Notes: generated by a model not told the origin, from the letters alone. Positions 2,339 to 17,114 are shown, counted from the first letter of the stretch. The stretch is DNA of 64,000 nucleotides from Candidatus Gottesmanbacteria bacterium GW2011_GWA2_43_14 (GCA_000999095.1 LCFP01000012.1:4140-68139), one strand, 5' to 3'. Numbers and translations are program-made.

Positions 2339-2419
2339 CGAAGAAATTATAGAACATAAAAAGAAATAATTAAAAGGGGATTGACAGGACGTGATAATTG
2401 AGCTAACCTATTCGGAAAC

Positions 2420-2467
2420 ATGGATATATCGGCAGGCTCAACCATTACCACTACTACCTTCTTTTAA
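2420..2467 (+). CDS. Putative Thr-rich leader peptide (MDISAGSTITTTTFF)
   Basis: A 15-codon ORF with five Thr in six codons (acc att acc act act acc). Its stop codon directly abuts a G-run that can pair with the 5' strand of a downstream terminator. Confidence 0.45.
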   Translation: MDISAGSTITTTTFF

Positions 2468-2468
2468 A

Positions 2469-2520
2469 GGGGGGTTCCGGCAGTGGCAGATGAGGACCTC
2501 CCCATAAGGGAGGTTTTTTT
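2469..2520 (+). promoter_or_regulatory. Attenuator. The hairpin GGGGGGUUCC/GGACCUCCCC (2469-2503) and the intrinsic terminator CCUCCC-cauaa-GGGAGG+U7 (2496-2520) are mutually exclusive.
   Basis: Base pairing read directly from the sequence. The terminator sits 88 nt upstream of the tdh start, with no upstream + strand gene to terminate. Confidence 0.5.
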
Positions 2521-2608
2521 AATGCATGAAATGTCACAAAATTATGACTAAATATATGTCTGGTTTTATTTTTTCCGGTTTATTATTTACAAAAACAGGA
2601 GGGAAAAT

Positions 2609-3559
2609 ATGAAAAAAATATTGGTGACAGGGGCTTTCGGACTGGTCGGTTCTGACCTGGTTGTCGAATTGGGCAGGAAATACGGCCATGACAACGTCGT
2701 CCTTTTGGCCCACGAGACTAAACGGCAGGTCGATTTCCCCCTTGAGAAAGGCGATGTAAGGGACAAAAGCACACTTGCAAAAATCATCAAAAAATATAAC
2801 GTGGGACAGATTTACCACCTGGCCGGACTACTGTCTGTCGGAGGCGAAAAAAATCCACCCCTTGCCTGGGACATCAATATCAACGGACTGAGAAATGTGC
2901 TGGATTTGGCGGTTAACCATAAATGCAGACTTTTCTGGCCGAGCTCGATTGCTGTCTTCGGGCCGACCACACCAAGGGACAAGACACCACAGCATACGGT
3001 CCTCGAACCGACGACCATGTACGGCGTCACTAAACTGGCCGGTGAACTTCTATGCCAATACTATTTTTTAAAATACGGCCTGGATGTCAGAAGCCTCAGG
3101 TATCCGGGGCTGATCGCTTACAAAGCGCCGCCGGGGGACGGCACCACAGAGTATTCCGTGCATATCTTTTACGGGGCTTTGAAAAATAAATCGTACAGCT
3201 GTTTTCTGAAAAAGGGCACCGTGCTGCCGATGATGTTTATAACTGATGCCGTTACCGGAACAATCGGCCTGATGGAAGCGGACCCGGGAAAAATTTCGGT
3301 CCGCACCAGTTACAATTTTTCGGCCATTAATTTCGCTCCGGAAGAACTGGTCCTTGAGATAAAAAAACACATGCCGGAGTTTAAATGCAGTTATAAGCCT
3401 GACCACAGGCAGAAGATTGCCGATTCCTGGCCGAAATCAATCGATGACGCCGTTGCCCGGAAAGACTGGGGCTGGCGGCATGAATACAATTTGCCCAGGA
3501 TGACCACAGTGATGCTAGAAAAATTAAAAGAAAAGTTGTCCCGGATGAAATCGGGATAG
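2609..3559 (+). CDS. tdh: L-threonine 3-dehydrogenase of the SDR / UDP-glucose-4-epimerase-like type
   Basis: Rossmann motif GAFGLVGS. It aligns closely along its length with epimerase-like TDH: RYPGLI, GDGTTEYSV, LPMMFITD, and a WGW..Y.L C-terminus. Confidence 0.85.
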   Translation: MKKILVTGAFGLVGSDLVVELGRKYGHDNVVLLAHETKRQVDFPLEKGDVRDKSTLAKIIKKYNVGQIYHLAGLLSVGGEKNPPLAWDININGLRNVLDLAVNHKCRLFWPSSIAVFGPTTPRDKTPQHTVLEPTTMYGVTKLAGELLCQYYFLKYGLDVRSLRYPGLIAYKAPPGDGTTEYSVHIFYGALKNKSYSCFLKKGTVLPMMFITDAVTGTIGLMEADPGKISVRTSYNFSAINFAPEELVLEIKKHMPEFKCSYKPDHRQKIADSWPKSIDDAVARKDWGWRHEYNLPRMTTVMLEKLKEKLSRMKSG

Positions 3560-3573
3560 AAAAGGAAAAAATT

Positions 3574-4818
3574 ATGTCCAAGCTGAATTTTTATAAAGTT
3601 TTAGAGGCAGAGTTGAAAAGGGTAGATGAAGCGAAAGTGGCCAAGAGGCAGGAGAAGGTCATCGAGAAGTTCAATGACGATTTCTTTCCCAAAGCCGTCA
3701 TAAACGGCCGGGAATATGCAATCTTTAACTCCAATGATTATCTGGGGTTGAGGTTTTTCGAGGAACTCCGAAGCGGCGAGGCCGAGGCAGCGGGAAAGTA
3801 CGGCACGGGGCCCGGCGCTGTCAGATTTATCTCCGGGACGATGAAGGTTTATAAGGATCTGGAGAAAAAAGTCGCCGGCTTCCATTACCGGGAAGAGGCC
3901 ATGGTTTTCTCCTCCGCCTTTGCGGCAAATCTGGCTGTTATTGCCTGCTTGAGCAAAGGACAGAGTAAGGATTCGCTTCTGTCGGGTCAGACTCTGATTG
4001 TTTCCGATGAGCTGAACCACAGAAGCATTATCGACGGGGTGAGGGTAGCCGGCCTTGCCAAAGAGCAAAAACTTATATACAAACATCTGGATTATGCTTC
4101 TTTGGAACAGGTTTTGGAGGAGAATCTGGGTAAGTTCAAACGCGTATTGGTAGTAACCGACGGCATCTTCAGCATGCTGGGGGAATATGCCGATGTCGGC
4201 AGGCTGGAGAAAATCTGCAGGCAGTTTAACGGCAGGTTTGAGGAAGGGGTATTCCTGATCGTCGATGACAGCCACGGGGTGGGTGCCTGCGGGGAAAGCG
4301 GACGGGGCTGCGAGGAACTGACTGGCGGGAAGGCGGATATACTGGTTGGCACTTTCGGCAAAGCCTTCGGCAGCGACGGGGGATATGCGGTCGGGAATAA
4401 AATCCTGATCGACTATCTGCGGGAAGCGGCTGCAACTTATATCTATTCCAATTCCATTTCGCCGGGAGTGGCCGGGGCTGCTTTGGCGGCGGTCAGGCTG
4501 GTCGATTCTGCCAAAGGCAAAAAGCTTTTGCGGCAGCTGGAGGAAAATATCAGTCTTTTTAAAAAACTGATGAAAAAGTACGGTTTTACCATGGCCGCTG
4601 ATTCCGTACATCCCATCCAGCCGGTCCTGATTGCCGATCCCTTCAAGACAAAAGCGCTGACCGACAAATTGTTTGCCAAAGGATACCTGGTGACCAATAT
4701 CAATTATCCGGTTGTCCCTAAAGGCAAGGATGAGATCCGGGTGCAGATAAGCGCTGCGCAATCAAGGGAAGATATTGAGAAATTTGCGAGAGAGGCGGCC
4801 GCTGCCAGAGAAAGTTAG
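3574..4818 (+). CDS. kbl: 2-amino-3-ketobutyrate CoA ligase (glycine C-acetyltransferase)
   Basis: PLP alpha-oxoamine synthase family: NDYLGL, DELNHRSIIDGVR, DDSHGVG, GTFGKAFG lysine motif, YPVVPKG. Sits directly downstream of tdh. Confidence 0.85.
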   Translation: MSKLNFYKVLEAELKRVDEAKVAKRQEKVIEKFNDDFFPKAVINGREYAIFNSNDYLGLRFFEELRSGEAEAAGKYGTGPGAVRFISGTMKVYKDLEKKVAGFHYREEAMVFSSAFAANLAVIACLSKGQSKDSLLSGQTLIVSDELNHRSIIDGVRVAGLAKEQKLIYKHLDYASLEQVLEENLGKFKRVLVVTDGIFSMLGEYADVGRLEKICRQFNGRFEEGVFLIVDDSHGVGACGESGRGCEELTGGKADILVGTFGKAFGSDGGYAVGNKILIDYLREAAATYIYSNSISPGVAGAALAAVRLVDSAKGKKLLRQLEENISLFKKLMKKYGFTMAADSVHPIQPVLIADPFKTKALTDKLFAKGYLVTNINYPVVPKGKDEIRVQISAAQSREDIEKFAREAAAARES

Positions 4819-5503: not shown

Positions 5504-6146
5504 AGTCGGCGGGGTCGACGGAGACGGTGCGGGTGAGTGTTTTCTTCTTGCCGAATTTGCTGATGGATTCGATGACTATGGTATTGACTCCCTCTTCCAG
5601 GGTAAAACTGGATGAGAATCCGCCATTGTCGTTTAAGGCAATTCTTTTGTTGTTGATCTCGACCACGGCATCGTGATCGGTCTTGCCGACAATTTCTATC
5701 CTCCCGTTTTTCAGGATTTCCCCTTCCTGCGGTTTATCGATAACCAAATTGGGCGGGCTGACATAAGCTTTCAGCTGGAATGACAGGTAGATGAAAAACA
5801 AAAGGAGGAAGGAGGCGAAAATAATAATGGTGATATTTTGCGGGGTAAAGCGGAAAACCGGTTCGTTGAGAGGTTTGCTGATACCCTCGGGCAGAATATC
5901 GTCGTCCTCATCGTATTCATACTGGCGGCGGAAAACGGCAACAATTTCTTCCGGTTTCAACTCCAGAAATTTGCTGTAGTTTCTAAGGAAGCCTTTGATA
6001 TAGGGGAGCGAGGGCAGTTTCACCCAGGCATTATCCTCCAGAGCCGCCAGGTATTTTTTCCTGATTTTGATCTGGTTTTCAACTTCATCAAGAGTAAGCC
6101 TTTTTTCCAGGCGGGCCTTTTTCAGAATTTCACCAACAGTACGCAT
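5502..6146 (-). CDS. rodZ: RodZ-like cytoskeleton/HTH membrane protein
   Basis: N-terminal XRE-type HTH (LTLDEVENQIKIRKKYLAALEDN), a central TM helix, and a C-terminal beta-rich domain. Confidence 0.6.
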   Translation of the reverse strand: MRTVGEILKKARLEKRLTLDEVENQIKIRKKYLAALEDNAWVKLPSLPYIKGFLRNYSKFLELKPEEIVAVFRRQYEYDEDDDILPEGISKPLNEPVFRFTPQNITIIIFASFLLLFFIYLSFQLKAYVSPPNLVIDKPQEGEILKNGRIEIVGKTDHDAVVEINNKRIALNDNGGFSSSFTLEEGVNTIVIESISKFGKKKTLTRTVSVDPAD

Positions 6147-6172: not shown

Positions 6173-8197
6173 TTAGGCAGCAGGCTCCGGTTCGTTTTTA
6201 CCGGCGAAAAACTCATCAGGGTTTTTAACCAGGACGTCTCTGGGTTTGGACCCTTCGGCCATGCCGACAATTCCTTCCGCTTCAAGCTGGTCCAAGACCC
6301 TGGCCGCCCGGGCGTAGCCTATTGATAATCTTCTCTGCAGTAAAGAGGCGGAAGCGCGGTCATACTGGCAGACTACCCGGACAGCCTGTTCAAATAACGC
6401 GTCATGGCCGTCTTCGCCCGTGGTGCCGGCGGGGCCACCGGCGCCTTTTTTCCAGGTGGGCGCCATGGAAGTGACTTCCTCGGTATATTCAACCGGCACA
6501 TTTTTGTTTTTCATATATTCAACCAGTTTGGCAATTTCGCCTTCGTTGACATAAGTACCCTGGATGCGGGTCGGTTTGGCCTGGTCGGGCGGGATATAAA
6601 GCATGTCACCCCGGCCTAAAAGTTTCTCGGCTCCCGGCATGTCGATAATCACCCGGGAATCGATCATCGAGGAAACGTTGAAGGCGATACGGGAAGGGAT
6701 ATTGGCTTTGATCAGGCCTGTTATAACATCAACGGAAGGCCGTTGGGTGGCCACAACCAAATGGATGCCGGTGGCCCGGGCCATCTGGGCAATACGACAG
6801 ATGGAATCCTCGACCTCGACGGGAGCGTAGGACATGAGGTCAGCCAGTTCGTCGATAAAGATAATGATATAAGGCAAGGCCTGGAAACCGGACAATTCGT
6901 TGTAGTGGTCGATATTCCTGACGCCGACTTCGGAGAAGAGCTTGTAACGGCGGTCCATCTCTGACATGGACCACTTGAGGGCGGAGAGAATTTTGTCAGG
7001 TTCGACAATGACCGGTGTCAAAAGGTGGGGAATATCCTTATATAAGGTAAGCTCGACTCTTTTGGGATCAACCAATATCAGTCTGACTTCGCTGGGGCTG
7101 TTTCGGAAGAGGATGGATGCGATCCAGGAATTGATGAGAACCGACTTGCCTGAGCCGGTCGTACCGGCTATAAGAACGTGAGGCATTTTGGCGATGTTGC
7201 CGACTACGGGACTGCCGGAAACATCCAGTCCCAGGGCAACTAGTAATTTATTCTTGCCCCGCTTCATGGAATCGCTGGACAGCATCTGTTTGACGGTGAC
7301 GAATTCGAGGGAGCGGTTTCCCAGGGCAATTTCCAGGGCATACTGGGTAACGGCCGGTCCTAAATTGACTTCGACCACCCGGGCATTGATGCCGAAACTT
7401 TCCAGAGTCTGTTCAATGGTTTGGGCGTTTTGCTTCATGTCACCCCGGTCGGCTTTCTGTCCGGGAGCAGAAGCAAGAAGCGATAAAGGCGGGTATTCCC
7501 AAACTTCTTCGGAGGCATTGAGATTGGTGACCACAGACGATCCCAAATCTCCGGGAGTTCCGGGCAGTTGGGCAGGAGCTTTTGGCGCTTTGGATTTTTC
7601 CCTGTCACTGATTTCTTTTTCAATCGGCGTATTTGTCAGTCTCGGGACGGGCGGCGGACGGATGGGCAGTTTATCGGCAAAAAGGTCTTTTTTCTTGGTT
7701 TTGACCGGGAGCTTTTCAAACAGTTCTAAAACGGATTCGGCGACTTTGACGATTTCCGCCAGAGAAATGTCAAAAAGCACCATCAGCCCCACAAAAAGCA
7801 TCAGGGAAATCATGACAAAAGAGCCGATTTCCGAGATGCGGTCGCTCGCAATCAGCCAGATAAAAGTACCCACCACTCCGCTTTGGGTCAAACCGCTCAA
7901 ACAGAAAAAAACCAAAAGAAGGCCAAGAAGGATATTGGGCCGGGTCAGGGAAATTTTGAGTTTCAGAAAGGACAAAGAAAAAGTGAGACCAAGTATGGGC
8001 AGGAGATATTTCATGACGCCGAAATAGTAGTCGGCCGTAAATTGCAGACTGTCCAAAACAGAGCCCTGCTGAAAAAAGCTGAGGGTCAGTAAAATCGATC
8101 CGATTATAAGAAACAGGGAGAGCAGGGAAAAGATAGTGCCTTTTCTCGGTTTGAGGATTGATTTCCTTCTTCTTCTGTAGTGTCTGCGTTTAGCCAT
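6173..8197 (-). CDS. ftsK: DNA translocase FtsK/SpoIIIE
   Basis: N-terminal TM helices, Walker A GTTGSGKS, and a C-terminal gamma winged-helix (LFEQAVRVV...QRRLSIGYARAARVLDQLE). Confidence 0.9.
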   Translation of the reverse strand: MAKRRHYRRRRKSILKPRKGTIFSLLSLFLIIGSILLTLSFFQQGSVLDSLQFTADYYFGVMKYLLPILGLTFSLSFLKLKISLTRPNILLGLLLVFFCLSGLTQSGVVGTFIWLIASDRISEIGSFVMISLMLFVGLMVLFDISLAEIVKVAESVLELFEKLPVKTKKKDLFADKLPIRPPPVPRLTNTPIEKEISDREKSKAPKAPAQLPGTPGDLGSSVVTNLNASEEVWEYPPLSLLASAPGQKADRGDMKQNAQTIEQTLESFGINARVVEVNLGPAVTQYALEIALGNRSLEFVTVKQMLSSDSMKRGKNKLLVALGLDVSGSPVVGNIAKMPHVLIAGTTGSGKSVLINSWIASILFRNSPSEVRLILVDPKRVELTLYKDIPHLLTPVIVEPDKILSALKWSMSEMDRRYKLFSEVGVRNIDHYNELSGFQALPYIIIFIDELADLMSYAPVEVEDSICRIAQMARATGIHLVVATQRPSVDVITGLIKANIPSRIAFNVSSMIDSRVIIDMPGAEKLLGRGDMLYIPPDQAKPTRIQGTYVNEGEIAKLVEYMKNKNVPVEYTEEVTSMAPTWKKGAGGPAGTTGEDGHDALFEQAVRVVCQYDRASASLLQRRLSIGYARAARVLDQLEAEGIVGMAEGSKPRDVLVKNPDEFFAGKNEPEPAA

Positions 8198-8295
8198 AGG
8201 CAGTGATTTATTATATCAGAGTAGGCTCTGCATAAAACATCCTATAGTATTTATAAGGGAATGTCAAGAGCAGCAGTCCATGCTAAAATACTCGC

Positions 8296-9264
8296 ATGAA
8301 AAAAAGCATCGTCAAAGTCAGAAATCTGACCAAAGTCTTCGTATCGGGAAAATTCAGCCTGAGACGAACAAAAAAAGAAAAAGTGACTGCCGTAGACGGT
8401 ATATCATTTGATATTCATGAGGGTGAAATCCTGGGGCTTTTGGGGCCTAACGGCGCGGGCAAAACCACTACCATCCAGATGATCCTGGGCCTGATAACGC
8501 CTACCTCAGGTACGATCTCAGTTTTCGGCAAAAATCTGGAGAATAAGCGCAAAGAAATCCTGAAACAGGTAAATTTTTCATCGACATATACACATCTGCC
8601 TTGGAATCTGACGATTTGGGAAAATCTTTATGTCCAGGCACTTTTGTACGCTATCGAAAATCCCAAAGAAAGGGTGGCGGAAATCCTGAAACTTTTTTCG
8701 CTGGAAAGTAAAAAAAACAAGGAAGTCAACGAATTGTCTTCCGGCTGGACAACCAGGCTTAATATGGCTAAATCGTTTTTGAATAATCCCAGGTTTCTGC
8801 TTCTGGATGAACCGACCGCTTCCCTTGATCCCGAAAGCGCGGAATCGATAAGGGAGCATATCAGGAAAATCAGGAGAAAATACCAGACCACTATTCTCTT
8901 CACCTCCCATAATATGGCCGAGGTGGAAGACATCTGCGACCGTGTTATTTTTCTCAATCTGGGCAAAATCATTGCCCGCGACACTCCTGAAGGATTGGCC
9001 AAAAGGATAAAAATATCCAGAGTTGAGATGATGATTGTGGACGGCCTGAAAAGGTTGCGTTCAATTGTGCGTGAGAATAAGTGGCAGGTCCAGGTATCCG
9101 GCAGATTTACAACAGTAAAGATACCCGAGGCTGATATCCCTAAATTTCTGAATATGCTTTCCGAAAAAAAAGTATCTTACATGGAGATTTCCATAGAAAA
9201 ACCTACTTTGCAGGATTTTTTCTTATTAACGGCTTCCGCCAGAATGCGGCCATCTATCGGCTGA
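8296..9264 (+). CDS. ABC transporter ATP-binding protein
   Basis: Walker A GPNGAGKTT, a variant signature LSSGWTTRL, and Walker B LLLDEPTASLD. Confidence 0.85.
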   Translation: MKKSIVKVRNLTKVFVSGKFSLRRTKKEKVTAVDGISFDIHEGEILGLLGPNGAGKTTTIQMILGLITPTSGTISVFGKNLENKRKEILKQVNFSSTYTHLPWNLTIWENLYVQALLYAIENPKERVAEILKLFSLESKKNKEVNELSSGWTTRLNMAKSFLNNPRFLLLDEPTASLDPESAESIREHIRKIRRKYQTTILFTSHNMAEVEDICDRVIFLNLGKIIARDTPEGLAKRIKISRVEMMIVDGLKRLRSIVRENKWQVQVSGRFTTVKIPEADIPKFLNMLSEKKVSYMEISIEKPTLQDFFLLTASARMRPSIG

Positions 9265-15815: not shown

Positions 15816-16970
15816 TTAAATCCCCTCAAGGGCTTGCGTTATATCTGCTATCAGATCATCCGCATCCTCGATGCCGACGGACAGTCTGATCAGTGTATCG
15901 CTAAGTCCGATTTTCGCCCGGTCTTCTGCCGGAATCGATGCATGGGTCATCGAAGCCGGATGCTCGATAAGCGATTCGACCACACCCAGAGATTCCGCCA
16001 CGGCGATAATTTTCAATGATTCCAGAAATTTTACCGACAGGGCAAGATCGGTATCCAGTTCGAATGAAAGCATACCGCTTGCGCCTGTCATCTGTTTTTT
16101 GGCAATGTCGTAATTCGGATGGGTGGAAAGTCCCGGATAATAAATTTTTTTGACTTTCGGCTGACGGCTGAGGAAGTCCACGATTTTCAGGGCGTTTTCT
16201 TCATGCCTTTTCATTCTCAAAGAAAGGGTTTTGATGCCTTTCAATATCTGGTAGCTGTCAAAGGGAGAGAGTATGGCTCCCACGGCATTTTGCAGGAATT
16301 TCAGACGAACAGACAACTGTTCGTCCCTGACAACAACGCCGCCTGCCACACAATCGGAATGGCCGCCGATATATTTGGTCATGGAGTGAATAACTATATC
16401 AGCTCCCAAATCCAGCGGTTTTTGGAAATAGGGCGAAGCGAAAGTATTGTCGACAACCGTCAAAATGCCTTTGGCCCGGGCTGTTTCGGCAACCGAGGCA
16501 ATATCGATTATTTTCAGAAGGGGATTGGTCGGCGATTCTATCCAGATCACTTTGGTGTTTTTCGTCAGATGAGGAAGAATTTCTTTGCCCTGGCAAAAAT
16601 CGGCGAATGTAAATTCCAGCCCGAAATCGCCAAAGACTTTGGTGAATAGTCTCCGGCTGCCGCCATAAACATCATCGATTGAAAGCAGGTGATCCCCCTG
16701 TTTGAGAAGCAGAAGAATGTTGGTCATGGCAGCCAGTCCGGAAGAAAAAGCAAAAGCGTATTTGCCGTTTTCAAGCGCGGCCAAGTTTTTTTCCAGGGCT
16801 TCCCGCGTCGGATTGCCGCTTCTGGAGTATTCATAGCCTGCTGTTGGCCGGTCGACTTTTGCCCGGGCAAAGGTGGTCGAGAGGTGGATCGGGACAACAA
16901 CATCGCCGCTGCCGCCCTCTTTTAAATTGGGTTCATTGCCGGTATGAATGGCTTTGGTAGCAAATTTCAC
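15816..16970 (-). CDS. Cys/Met-metabolism PLP-dependent enzyme (cystathionine gamma-synthase / beta-lyase / methionine gamma-lyase family)
   Basis: PLP-lysine motif SMTKYIGGHSD and an N-terminal AIHTG. GTG start. Confidence 0.75.
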   Translation of the reverse strand: MKFATKAIHTGNEPNLKEGGSGDVVVPIHLSTTFARAKVDRPTAGYEYSRSGNPTREALEKNLAALENGKYAFAFSSGLAAMTNILLLLKQGDHLLSIDDVYGGSRRLFTKVFGDFGLEFTFADFCQGKEILPHLTKNTKVIWIESPTNPLLKIIDIASVAETARAKGILTVVDNTFASPYFQKPLDLGADIVIHSMTKYIGGHSDCVAGGVVVRDEQLSVRLKFLQNAVGAILSPFDSYQILKGIKTLSLRMKRHEENALKIVDFLSRQPKVKKIYYPGLSTHPNYDIAKKQMTGASGMLSFELDTDLALSVKFLESLKIIAVAESLGVVESLIEHPASMTHASIPAEDRAKIGLSDTLIRLSVGIEDADDLIADITQALEGI

Positions 16971-17114
16971 AAAAAAAACCTTCCTTGAGGGATAGTCAGA
17001 TTTCTAACTCGAGAAAATCCGGCTTCCGTTACGGAAGGCAACAACAAATTTCAATAATTGTTCCGTGATTCATGTTTGAGAGTAAATAATAGCAGAAAGC
17101 CCTGATTTTGTCTA

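Follow-up and report, generated by a model that had tools for sequence, protein, structure and literature searches.

A putative threonine attenuator ahead of tdh-kbl in a Gottesmanbacteria genome and its relatives, and a possible threonine-supplying role for the operon

The closest known counterpart of the system presented here is the E. coli thr attenuator (thrL; Rfam Thr_leader RF00506), in which a short open reading frame (ORF) rich in threonine (Thr) codons, mutually exclusive 1:2, 2:3 and 3:4 pairings and a terminator give read-through when Thr-tRNA is scarce. Induction of a cognate synthetase by uncharged tRNA is well precedented, as in pheST and T-box-controlled thrS, and in B. subtilis a cysteine (Cys) T-box governs cysE and cysS on one transcript, so that a supply enzyme is paired with its synthetase. 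The E. coli kbl-tdh pair, whose Tdh is a zinc medium-chain dehydrogenase, is used catabolically, can replace glyA and is not known to stand under a Thr leader. Here we describe a tdh-kbl operon in a 64-kb stretch of DNA (the window, the whole stretch that was analysed) from Candidatus Gottesmanbacteria bacterium GW2011_GWA2_43_14, preceded by an element that is predicted to share all of the above features of the thr attenuator. On predicted folds and conserved anatomy, this element is very probably a functional Thr-sensing attenuator of classical polarity, and the evidence leans, if only a little, towards threonine supply as the selected role of the operon in the species that carry the leader.

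The leader and the two genes consist of the following parts:

2381-2386 and 2404-2409, plus strand: promoter candidate 1, TTGACA, 17 nucleotides (nt), TAACCT, from sequence reading and conserved in locus L003
2370-2375 and 2393-2398, plus strand: promoter candidate 2, TTAAAA, 17 nt, GATAAT, from a consensus scan
2420-2467, plus strand: leader ORF of 15 codons, MDISAGSTITTTTFF and stop, about 140 nt upstream of tdh
2448-2463, plus strand: region 1, the 5' arm of 1:2, spanning the last Thr and the two Phe codons, in minimum free energy (MFE) and centroid folds
2468-2486, plus strand: region 2, AGGGGGGUUCCGGCAGUGG, purine-rich, predicted to pair with region 1 or region 3
2494-2503, plus strand: region 3, GGACCUCCCC, predicted to pair with region 2 (anti-terminator) or region 4 (terminator)
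2497-2520, plus strand: predicted intrinsic terminator, CCUCCC 2497-2502 and GGGAGG 2508-2513, loop CAUAA, U7 at 2514-2520
2597-2603, plus strand: Shine-Dalgarno sequence of tdh, AGGAGGG
2609-3559, plus strand: tdh, short-chain (GalE-like) L-threonine 3-dehydrogenase, 316 amino acids, by homology to solved TDHs
3574-4818, plus strand: kbl, Kbl-type glycine C-acetyltransferase (alpha-oxoamine synthase), 414 amino acids, starting 15 nt past the tdh stop, by homology and a signature Val

The leader ORF reads ATG GAT ATA TCG GCA GGC TCA ACC ATT ACC ACT ACT ACC TTC TTT TAA, with four consecutive Thr codons at 2447-2458 and another at 2441-2443 (five Thr in six residues), and region 2, whose counterparts in relatives are GGAGGGUG and GAGGGGAG, begins 1 nt past its stop codon. 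The MFE fold of the window leader contains the 1:2 hairpin and the terminator, sub-segment folds pair region 2 alternatively with region 3, and the 1:2, 2:3 and 3:4 pairings are predicted to be about equally stable (-14.4, -15.1 and -13.1 kcal/mol). The terminator is not that of the upstream gene, because this gene (1550-2338) is divergent on the minus strand, and for the same reason the 270-nt gap between it and tdh is a divergent promoter region. The hexamer pairs within 2370-2409 would act as promoter there; with either of them the leader ATG would be only about 4-15 nt away, and this short stretch has no Shine-Dalgarno sequence. TTGACA-17-TAACCT resembles an ATGATT-17/18-TAACCT arrangement found 5' of tdh elsewhere. 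The gene 3' of kbl is convergent, so that the operon in the window consists of tdh-kbl only.

With this anatomy, transcription would start a few nt before the 15-codon ORF with its four consecutive Thr codons. When Thr-tRNA is plentiful, the ribosome would reach the stop codon and cover region 2, the 3:4 terminator would form and transcription would end before tdh. When Thr-tRNA is scarce, the ribosome would stall on the Thr codons, in region 1, leaving region 2 free to pair with region 3; no terminator would form, and tdh-kbl, or in some relatives tdh-kbl-thrS-infC, would be transcribed. Without translation, 1:2 and 3:4 would both form. By the usual footprint sizes, a ribosome at any of the first three Thr codons would cover region 1, and one at the stop would mask region 2 only, since the 5' arm of the terminator lies 27-31 nt past the stop. 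An earlier note on this DNA, made from its sequence alone, had supposed that the leader induces tdh-kbl at scarce Thr-tRNA as classical attenuators do, and the predicted anatomy agrees, with codons in region 1, a stop that abuts region 2, and this spacing. Termination on stalling, which the same note had named as the structure that would speak against its idea, was looked for, and neither the spacing nor the predicted hairpins have that form. We rejected such an inverse logic, together with a pyrBI-type coupling of ribosome and RNA polymerase, because region 1 holds the Thr codons and a ribosome at the stop could not reach a terminator arm that far away. Read-through on Thr starvation is, on these models, what the element would bring about.

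The same design recurs in related genomes. We compared 80 species-level tdh loci from a genome-contig scan (numbered with an L below), the window being counted among the seven leader carriers; by a scan of genome collections, the window Tdh has its nearest species-level relatives in Gottesmanbacteria and Roizmanbacteria, and after these in further Patescibacteria, in DPANN and Thermoplasmatota archaea and in a few metagenome-assembled genomes labelled as other phyla. The tdh gene of the window was also met on a Rifle-type metagenome scaffold, and a protein encoded near it in the window has 100% identity to one of Candidatus Gottesmanbacteria bacterium GW2011_GWA2_43_14. An ATG-started ORF with four consecutive in-frame Thr codons precedes tdh in the window and six other loci, 7 of the 80. 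Looser leaders, with non-consecutive Thr codons, GTG or TTG starts or kbl-first operons, were found before none of the other 73 tdh loci. The six related leader peptides, with the assemblies that carry them, are:

L003 (MFJU01): MMILADSGMTTTTLF
L004 (CAYIFB01): MSNPILIESGNFNSTTTTKQYLEV, a 24-codon variant
L012 (JANLIS01): MKMNLNVNNTTTTLF
L016 (JAKAHA01) and L045 (DOZC01): MKMNLNINGTTTTLV
L025 (JBBTYO01): MKIKLIVNGTTTTLV

The in-frame Thr run is the sole feature common to all leader peptides, and it is kept in eight sequences besides the window, with synonymous variation among ACC, ACT, ACA and ACG; in the 15-codon ORFs of L003, L012, L016, L025, L045 and L083, TTTT occupies positions 10-13 and is followed by two hydrophobic residues. 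Counting distinct sequences, the full design (TTTT in the peptide, region 1 enclosing Thr codons, the stop next to region 2) stands before tdh-kbl in at least eight from Microgenomates. Nine leaders were folded by sub-segments, and we relied on folds made for each sequence because the alignment register is broken between clades. In eight of the nine, predicted energies were -8 to -15 kcal/mol for 1:2, -9 to -15 for 2:3 and -10 to -15 for 3:4; in L004, the scripted 2:3 segment began past region 2 (inside the ORF) and gave -0.2 kcal/mol, and the pairing of GGAGGUUU with AAACCUCC was read by eye. The distance from stop to terminator is 27-31 nt in all nine leaders, a U5-U8 tract follows the hairpin in every one, and the stem varies by clade as CCUCCC/GGGAGG, CCCUCC/GGAGGG or CCUCC/GGAGG.

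A metagenome scan with a degenerate pattern, comprising the Thr run, the two next codons, the stop and the start of region 2, returned seven matches. Five lie directly 5' of a visible tdh, and the sixth, whose sequence is cut by the contig end, is identical to these five. The seventh (L084, about 1010-1080) is on a 1.2-kb GC-rich contig, in an ORF MFFSVKFGHPKPQLITTTTFF that ends ..LITTTTFF before its stop; the last nine residues and the AGGGG that follows resemble the window leader, no clear terminator is visible within the roughly 170 nt that remain before the contig ends, and whatever gene lies downstream is not on the contig. In the window and loci L003-L089, on both strands, the TTTT leader with its terminator signature occurs only before tdh.

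Leaders of the L012 (Roizman) type have a TTGATT-16-TATATT promoter that ends 6-7 nt 5' of the ATG, so that ribosomes would translate their leader ORF from an mRNA that is all but leaderless. As a separate observation, the 1:2 hairpin of L012, L016, L025, L045 and L083 (CACUCUC..GAGGGUG) is itself followed by U5-U7, and so looks like an additional terminator, or a strong pause site, ahead of the main terminator.

The two ORFs lie exactly where they had been placed, at 2609-3559 and 3574-4818, and the identities proposed for them from the sequence are borne out by homology to solved structures and by a Kbl-type Val. We accept the first gene, on this homology, as tdh. Its product belongs to the extended short-chain dehydrogenases (Pfam Epimerase) and matches, over residues 3-306, the solved enzymes of Flavobacterium (2yy7, E = 1e-101), Thermoplasma (3a9w, 4e-90) and mouse (4yr9, 3e-85), as well as consensus-designed TDHs (E = 1e-119); no NCBIfam model reached its cut-off, the top match being D-erythronate dehydrogenase at 98 bits against 325. 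Like the solved short-chain TDHs (2yy7, 3a9w, 3wmx, 4yr9, 5k4q), to which it is homologous over its full length, it has the Gly-rich dinucleotide motif (GAFGLVG, residues 8-14) and YxxxK (YGVTK), both aligned to the same motifs of 7cgv. Unlike them, it has replaced the acidic residue of ..ASDIR.., within residues 31-39 (..VVLLAHETKR..). We take this residue, at the end of strand beta-2, to be the determinant of NAD specificity, as in short-chain dehydrogenases generally. Nearly all of the Patescibacteria and DPANN homologues compared across L003-L082 have likewise lost the Asp (..LSHKTTH.., ..LGNKTIP..); it is kept only in L069 and L081 and is one position off in L072, L074 and L077, and among the solved TDHs aligned only 7ol1 (..ASSRRV..) also lacks it. 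Its loss may alter the preference of the Patescibacteria Tdh for NAD or NADP. We set this reasoning aside and draw no conclusion on NADH versus NADPH, because the Asp is absent from most Patescibacteria Tdh with or without a leader, and from 7ol1.

The second gene is, on sequence, kbl, of a divergent subtype. Its top solved relatives are the Kbl proteins of Coxiella (3tqx, 3e-63) and E. coli (1fc4, 2e-60), and its scores are below the NCBIfam cut-offs both for kbl (NF005394, 313.5 against 460; TIGR01822, 278.2 against 493) and for bioF (TIGR00858, 318.9 against 426). A study of ThAOS states that the Val at its position 79 is conserved in all KBLs and is Ser, Leu or Thr in other alpha-oxoamine synthases (PMC11906848). 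The window protein carries this signature as Val83 in GAVRFISGT, where E. coli Kbl has ASVRFICGT and other relatives have GSRF (SPT), GSHL (AONS) or GTRN (ALAS). Its TFGKA, ELNHRS and VDDSHG align with TLGKA, ALNHAS and VDDSHA of 1fc4, which hold the pyridoxal phosphate lysine and the active-site NH and DDSH motifs of E. coli Kbl. A Kbl-type gene adjoins tdh in 65 of the 80 loci, 40 of these genes being of the window subtype (51-79% identity) and 25 of a second subtype (33-40% identity). Within the window subtype, Kbl has a Thr content of 3.0% in leader-type loci versus 4.5% in leaderless ones, a difference to which we give no weight, as it comes from n=6 related sequences and phylogeny may explain it.

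The gene order in one group of relatives ties tdh-kbl to threonyl-tRNA synthetase. In L012, L016 and L083 (and in the near-identical L086 and L089), thrS starts 8-10 nt after the kbl stop and is followed by infC, then by an ORF like that of ribosomal protein L20, recognised by eye only; the thrS behind kbl scores 671.6 bits with TIGR00418, against a cut-off of 383.65. These genes, all in the orientation of kbl, belong to a Roizmanbacteria-like clade and were observed at:

L012, 7566-9846: genes 3' of kbl
L016, 8224-10507: genes 3' of kbl
L083, 8927-9197: genes 3' of kbl

A gap of 8-10 nt has no room for a terminator, and because the species concerned carry the leader, tdh-kbl probably shares one starvation-induced transcript with thrS. 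To co-transcribe thrS with a Thr-destroying pathway under Thr starvation would be self-defeating. The order tdh-kbl-thrS also occurs in the leaderless relatives L007, L008, L011 and L015, and the kbl-thrS gap is about 500 nt in L011 and about 2.3 kb in L024.

Candidate leaders of a second kind, for Cys, stand before genes of Cys interconversion in these genomes. In the window, these features are:

17073 to 17029, minus strand: leader ORF MNHGTIIEICCCLP and stop, with three consecutive Cys codons (17046-17038), in a candidate attenuator at 16971-17073
16984-16979 and 16978-16971, minus strand: terminator-like GGAAGG and U8, with the 5' arm CCUUCC inside the end of the leader ORF
15816-16970, minus strand: cystathionine gamma-lyase-like gene, directly 3' of the Cys leader

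In L092 (1375-1500), MKIWNKTISICCCNPLT and its stop precede the same gamma-lyase-like gene, and in L091 (370-515), MTVRFINLVCCCTSPKKGRYVC and its stop are followed by GGGGAGG, CCUCCCC and GGGAGG-U8, a clear 1:2, 2:3, 3:4 design that stands before a pair of a PALP-domain (cystathionine beta-synthase-like, CBS) gene and a gamma-lyase (CGL) gene; L093 has neither an intergenic gap nor a leader. Because these Cys leaders precede CBS and CGL genes, these genomes would use starvation-sensing leaders for enzymes whose interconversion reactions yield the amino acid that is sensed.

Since the operon would be switched on by Thr shortage, the most likely job of tdh-kbl is Thr supply; raising Thr cleavage during Thr starvation would be self-defeating. 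Kbl would condense glycine and acetyl-CoA to 2-amino-3-ketobutyrate, and Tdh would reduce this with NAD(P)H to L-threonine, in reverse of the textbook catabolism. Alpha-oxoamine synthases normally run as condensing enzymes, joining glycine to an acyl-CoA, which we count in favour of supply, and the title of a 1993 paper by Marcus and Dekker (J Bacteriol 175:6505) reportedly describes a coupled reaction of E. coli Kbl and Tdh that yields threonine in vitro. A biosynthetic direction had been suggested before on the strength of the leader; it is strengthened here by the tdh-kbl-thrS-infC string in three species and by the Cys leaders, and the direction of metabolic flux itself is what we infer from them. 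According to a survey of groundwater bacteria of the candidate phyla radiation (CPR), most amino-acid synthesis genes are lacking in these organisms, and key Thr and Cys genes are missing even from pooled genomes (PMC12114108). None of asd, hom, thrB and thrC was seen among the ORFs checked in the 64-kb window. In one leader-bearing locus, L004, a 2-oxoacid:ferredoxin oxidoreductase (alpha and beta subunits) is encoded 380 nt 3' of kbl (6181-8807); such an enzyme is a possible acetyl-CoA source.

Several points weigh against the attenuator or against its service to Thr supply. The structures of the attenuator are all predicted, and the whole-leader fold has no more stability than shuffles (z = -1.08), so that stability by itself is no proof. 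The MAFFT alignment shifts the 1:2 stems of Gottesman-type and Roizman-type leaders by one column against each other, which makes column-wise covariation counts for these two main clades invalid, and truly compensatory changes are few because all stems vary on GGAGG/CCUCC. The leader is present in about 9% (one in eleven) of the related tdh loci and is missing from the close relatives L005, L007, L011 and L015; being so patchy, the regulation is dispensable and evolutionarily labile. Tdh is not depleted in Thr (6.0%, in a range of 6.0-7.5%, against a window mean of 5.2%). At equilibrium, the overall reaction Thr + NAD+ + CoA = Gly + acetyl-CoA + NADH probably lies somewhat on the side of cleavage, and net synthesis would then need high ratios of Gly to Thr, acetyl-CoA to CoA and NAD(P)H to NAD(P)+. 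Finally, thrS may be what the leader chiefly serves in one clade.

The last point can be widened into an alternative account of the operon, in which tdh-kbl is catabolic and has inherited a leader that evolved for thrS, as pheM did for pheST, the two genes happening to lie between leader and thrS; in Gottesmanbacteria the leader would have remained with tdh-kbl after rearrangement and be neutral or mildly harmful. We regard this as unlikely, although thrS does follow kbl directly in one clade, with and without the leader, and the leader is patchy, having been lost or never gained in close relatives. It is also true that Thr cleavage is documented as the physiological direction in E. coli and trypanosomes, and that acetyl-CoA from Thr would suit a fermenter. 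However, what three divergent leader subtypes have kept in common is the unit leader-tdh-kbl and not leader-thrS: the window, L003, L004 and L045 have no thrS nearby and keep the promoter, the ORF and the three predicted hairpins. A switch that raises Thr destruction in starvation should be counterselected, but ORF length, Thr run and stems are maintained, and the Cys leaders of the same genomes precede producing enzymes.

Somewhat less probable again is a near-equilibrium, two-way shunt between the Thr and glycine pools, whose capacity the attenuator would boost when Thr is limiting and which, by basal read-through, would serve cleavage to glycine and acetyl-CoA when imported Thr is in excess. 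The literature supports both directions, in that cleavage rescues glyA mutants and synthesis is also stated. Most related loci have no leader, which fits a role beyond starvation, and thyA and folA, about 5 kb downstream of tdh-kbl in the window, imply demand for glycine and one-carbon units. Yet Thr shortage is the sole regulatory input seen, with no element that senses glycine or Thr excess and, by Rfam, no glycine riboswitch in the window or 12 related loci.

Different chemistry, in which divergent Kbl-like and Tdh-like proteins act on other substrates and the Thr leader is indirect, is very improbable. The low family scores given above for Kbl (kbl models and bioF alike) and the replacement of the ASDIR aspartate by LAHETKR would suit it, but Tdh matches solved TDHs over its full length (E = 1e-101 to 1e-119), Kbl has the Kbl-specific Val and Kbl proteins as its top solved relatives, 65 of 80 loci have the same pairing with tdh, and the amino acid that is sensed is the very one which these two enzymes form or consume. 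That the leader ORF and hairpins are a chance intergenic feature with no regulatory role is scarcely credible, since, for all that the fold is no more stable than shuffles and an Rfam match is absent (in the whole window and in 12 related loci only tRNAs passed the gathering threshold; at a permissive E <= 10 in 2330-2620 no Thr_leader RF00506, and only sub-threshold P9 at 25.1 against 43 bits and Phe_leader at 22.4 against 55), at least eight sequences that differ elsewhere have kept the ORF and its frame, the run of four Thr, the placing of the stop with respect to region 2 and a terminator with a U tract, and the pattern occurs almost exclusively before tdh.

Loci with the second Kbl subtype have a setting of their own. 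In L010, L021, L037, L043, L044, L049, L052, L058, L063, L035 and L023, tdh-kbl lies inside a conserved tRNA cluster, on the opposite strand; the cluster runs tRNA-Thr(UGU) / tRNA-Tyr ... tRNA-Thr(GGU) ... tRNA-Trp (for example L010, 1391-1463 and 4725-5319), and its tRNA-Thr(GGU) is divergent from tdh at a distance of 60-150 nt. Roizman-type loci have a tRNA-Val(GAC) 5' of tdh or of the leader, mostly on the same strand and in L015 on the opposite one. tdh-kbl is thus beside Thr-decoding genes in two separate clades, which may be plain synteny. The last 70 nt or so before the ATG of L010, L018, L021, L023, L035, L037, L043, L044, L049, L052, L058 and L063 share a motif, TATTGTATCA(A/T)A ... 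GTGCGC(A/G)TGATTT ... 12-15 nt ... CGACTA(A/T/C)... 6-12 nt ... ATG. RNAalifold gave no consensus structure for it, and we rejected it as a structured RNA; it looks like a promoter (ATGATT-17/18-TAnnnT after CGAC) that would give a leaderless tdh mRNA, and TTGACA-17-(GAGC)TAACCT of the window resembles it. L035, L058 and L063 have an insert of about 165 nt before the tdh ATG (at about 5835-6000 of the locus), bounded by inverted repeats of about 19 nt, CCAGGTAGTAGAATTTCGA ... TCGAAATTTCACTACCTGG, and placed between the promoter-like motif, which has an ATG of its own after it, and the start of tdh; its appearance is that of a miniature mobile element or of some other structured insert.

A wider reading, which we hold as a serious possibility without yet expecting it to prove right, is that Kbl and short-chain Tdh are the native, perhaps the only, way to Thr for many CPR bacteria and DPANN archaea without the aspartate pathway. 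tdh-kbl would be anabolic in these organisms and wired to Thr decoding, by the Thr attenuator, by co-transcription with thrS-infC and by insertion into the tRNA-Thr/Tyr/Thr cluster, and the cofactor preference of Tdh may have shifted with the loss of the NAD-type Asp. If this is true, it adds a natural two-step pathway, so far unrecognised, to an amino acid for which aspartate has been taken as the sole source; auxotrophy calls from CPR and DPANN genomes, for which GapMind makes no mention of a tdh-kbl route, would need revision, and cultivation media could offer glycine instead of threonine.

We know of no amino-acid attenuator that regulates tdh-kbl. Our literature search found no description of a tdh/kbl attenuator or of attenuators in Patescibacteria, and no report of a natural organism that relies on reverse Tdh-Kbl; the type of attenuator is already known, and in the literature found tdh-kbl had not been described as its target. 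The element points to classical ribosome-mediated attenuation, with nearly leaderless leader ORFs, being in use in Patescibacteria, and to its use there on enzymes of salvage and interconversion (Tdh-Kbl for Thr, CBS/CGL for Cys) and not on long de novo pathways.

Set against the known systems with which we began, the window leader differs from the E. coli thr attenuator in several respects. It has no sequence or covariance-model similarity to it (E <= 10), it has four or five Thr codons only and no reiteration of Ile, its ORF lies near the predicted transcript start without a Shine-Dalgarno sequence, and it controls tdh-kbl, with or without thrS, and not thrABC. The leader-bearing loci L012, L016 and L083 are like pheST (pheM) and the B. 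subtilis cysE-cysS T-box in having the cognate synthetase behind the leader, and like cysE-cysS in that a supply gene would share its transcript with that synthetase. They differ from cysE-cysS in that the sensor is a leader peptide and the supply genes are tdh-kbl, which are not recognised as biosynthetic, and the operon in the window has no thrS. With E. coli kbl-tdh, the operon shares the same two reactions, the tight pairing of the genes and the signature residues of Kbl, whereas the gene order is reversed and the window Tdh is of the short-chain, GalE-like kind. The coupled Kbl and Tdh reaction attributed to Marcus and Dekker, in vitro and with E. coli enzymes, would be, to judge by the title of that paper, the chemical precedent for making threonine from glycine, acetyl-CoA and NADH, as this operon is proposed to do.

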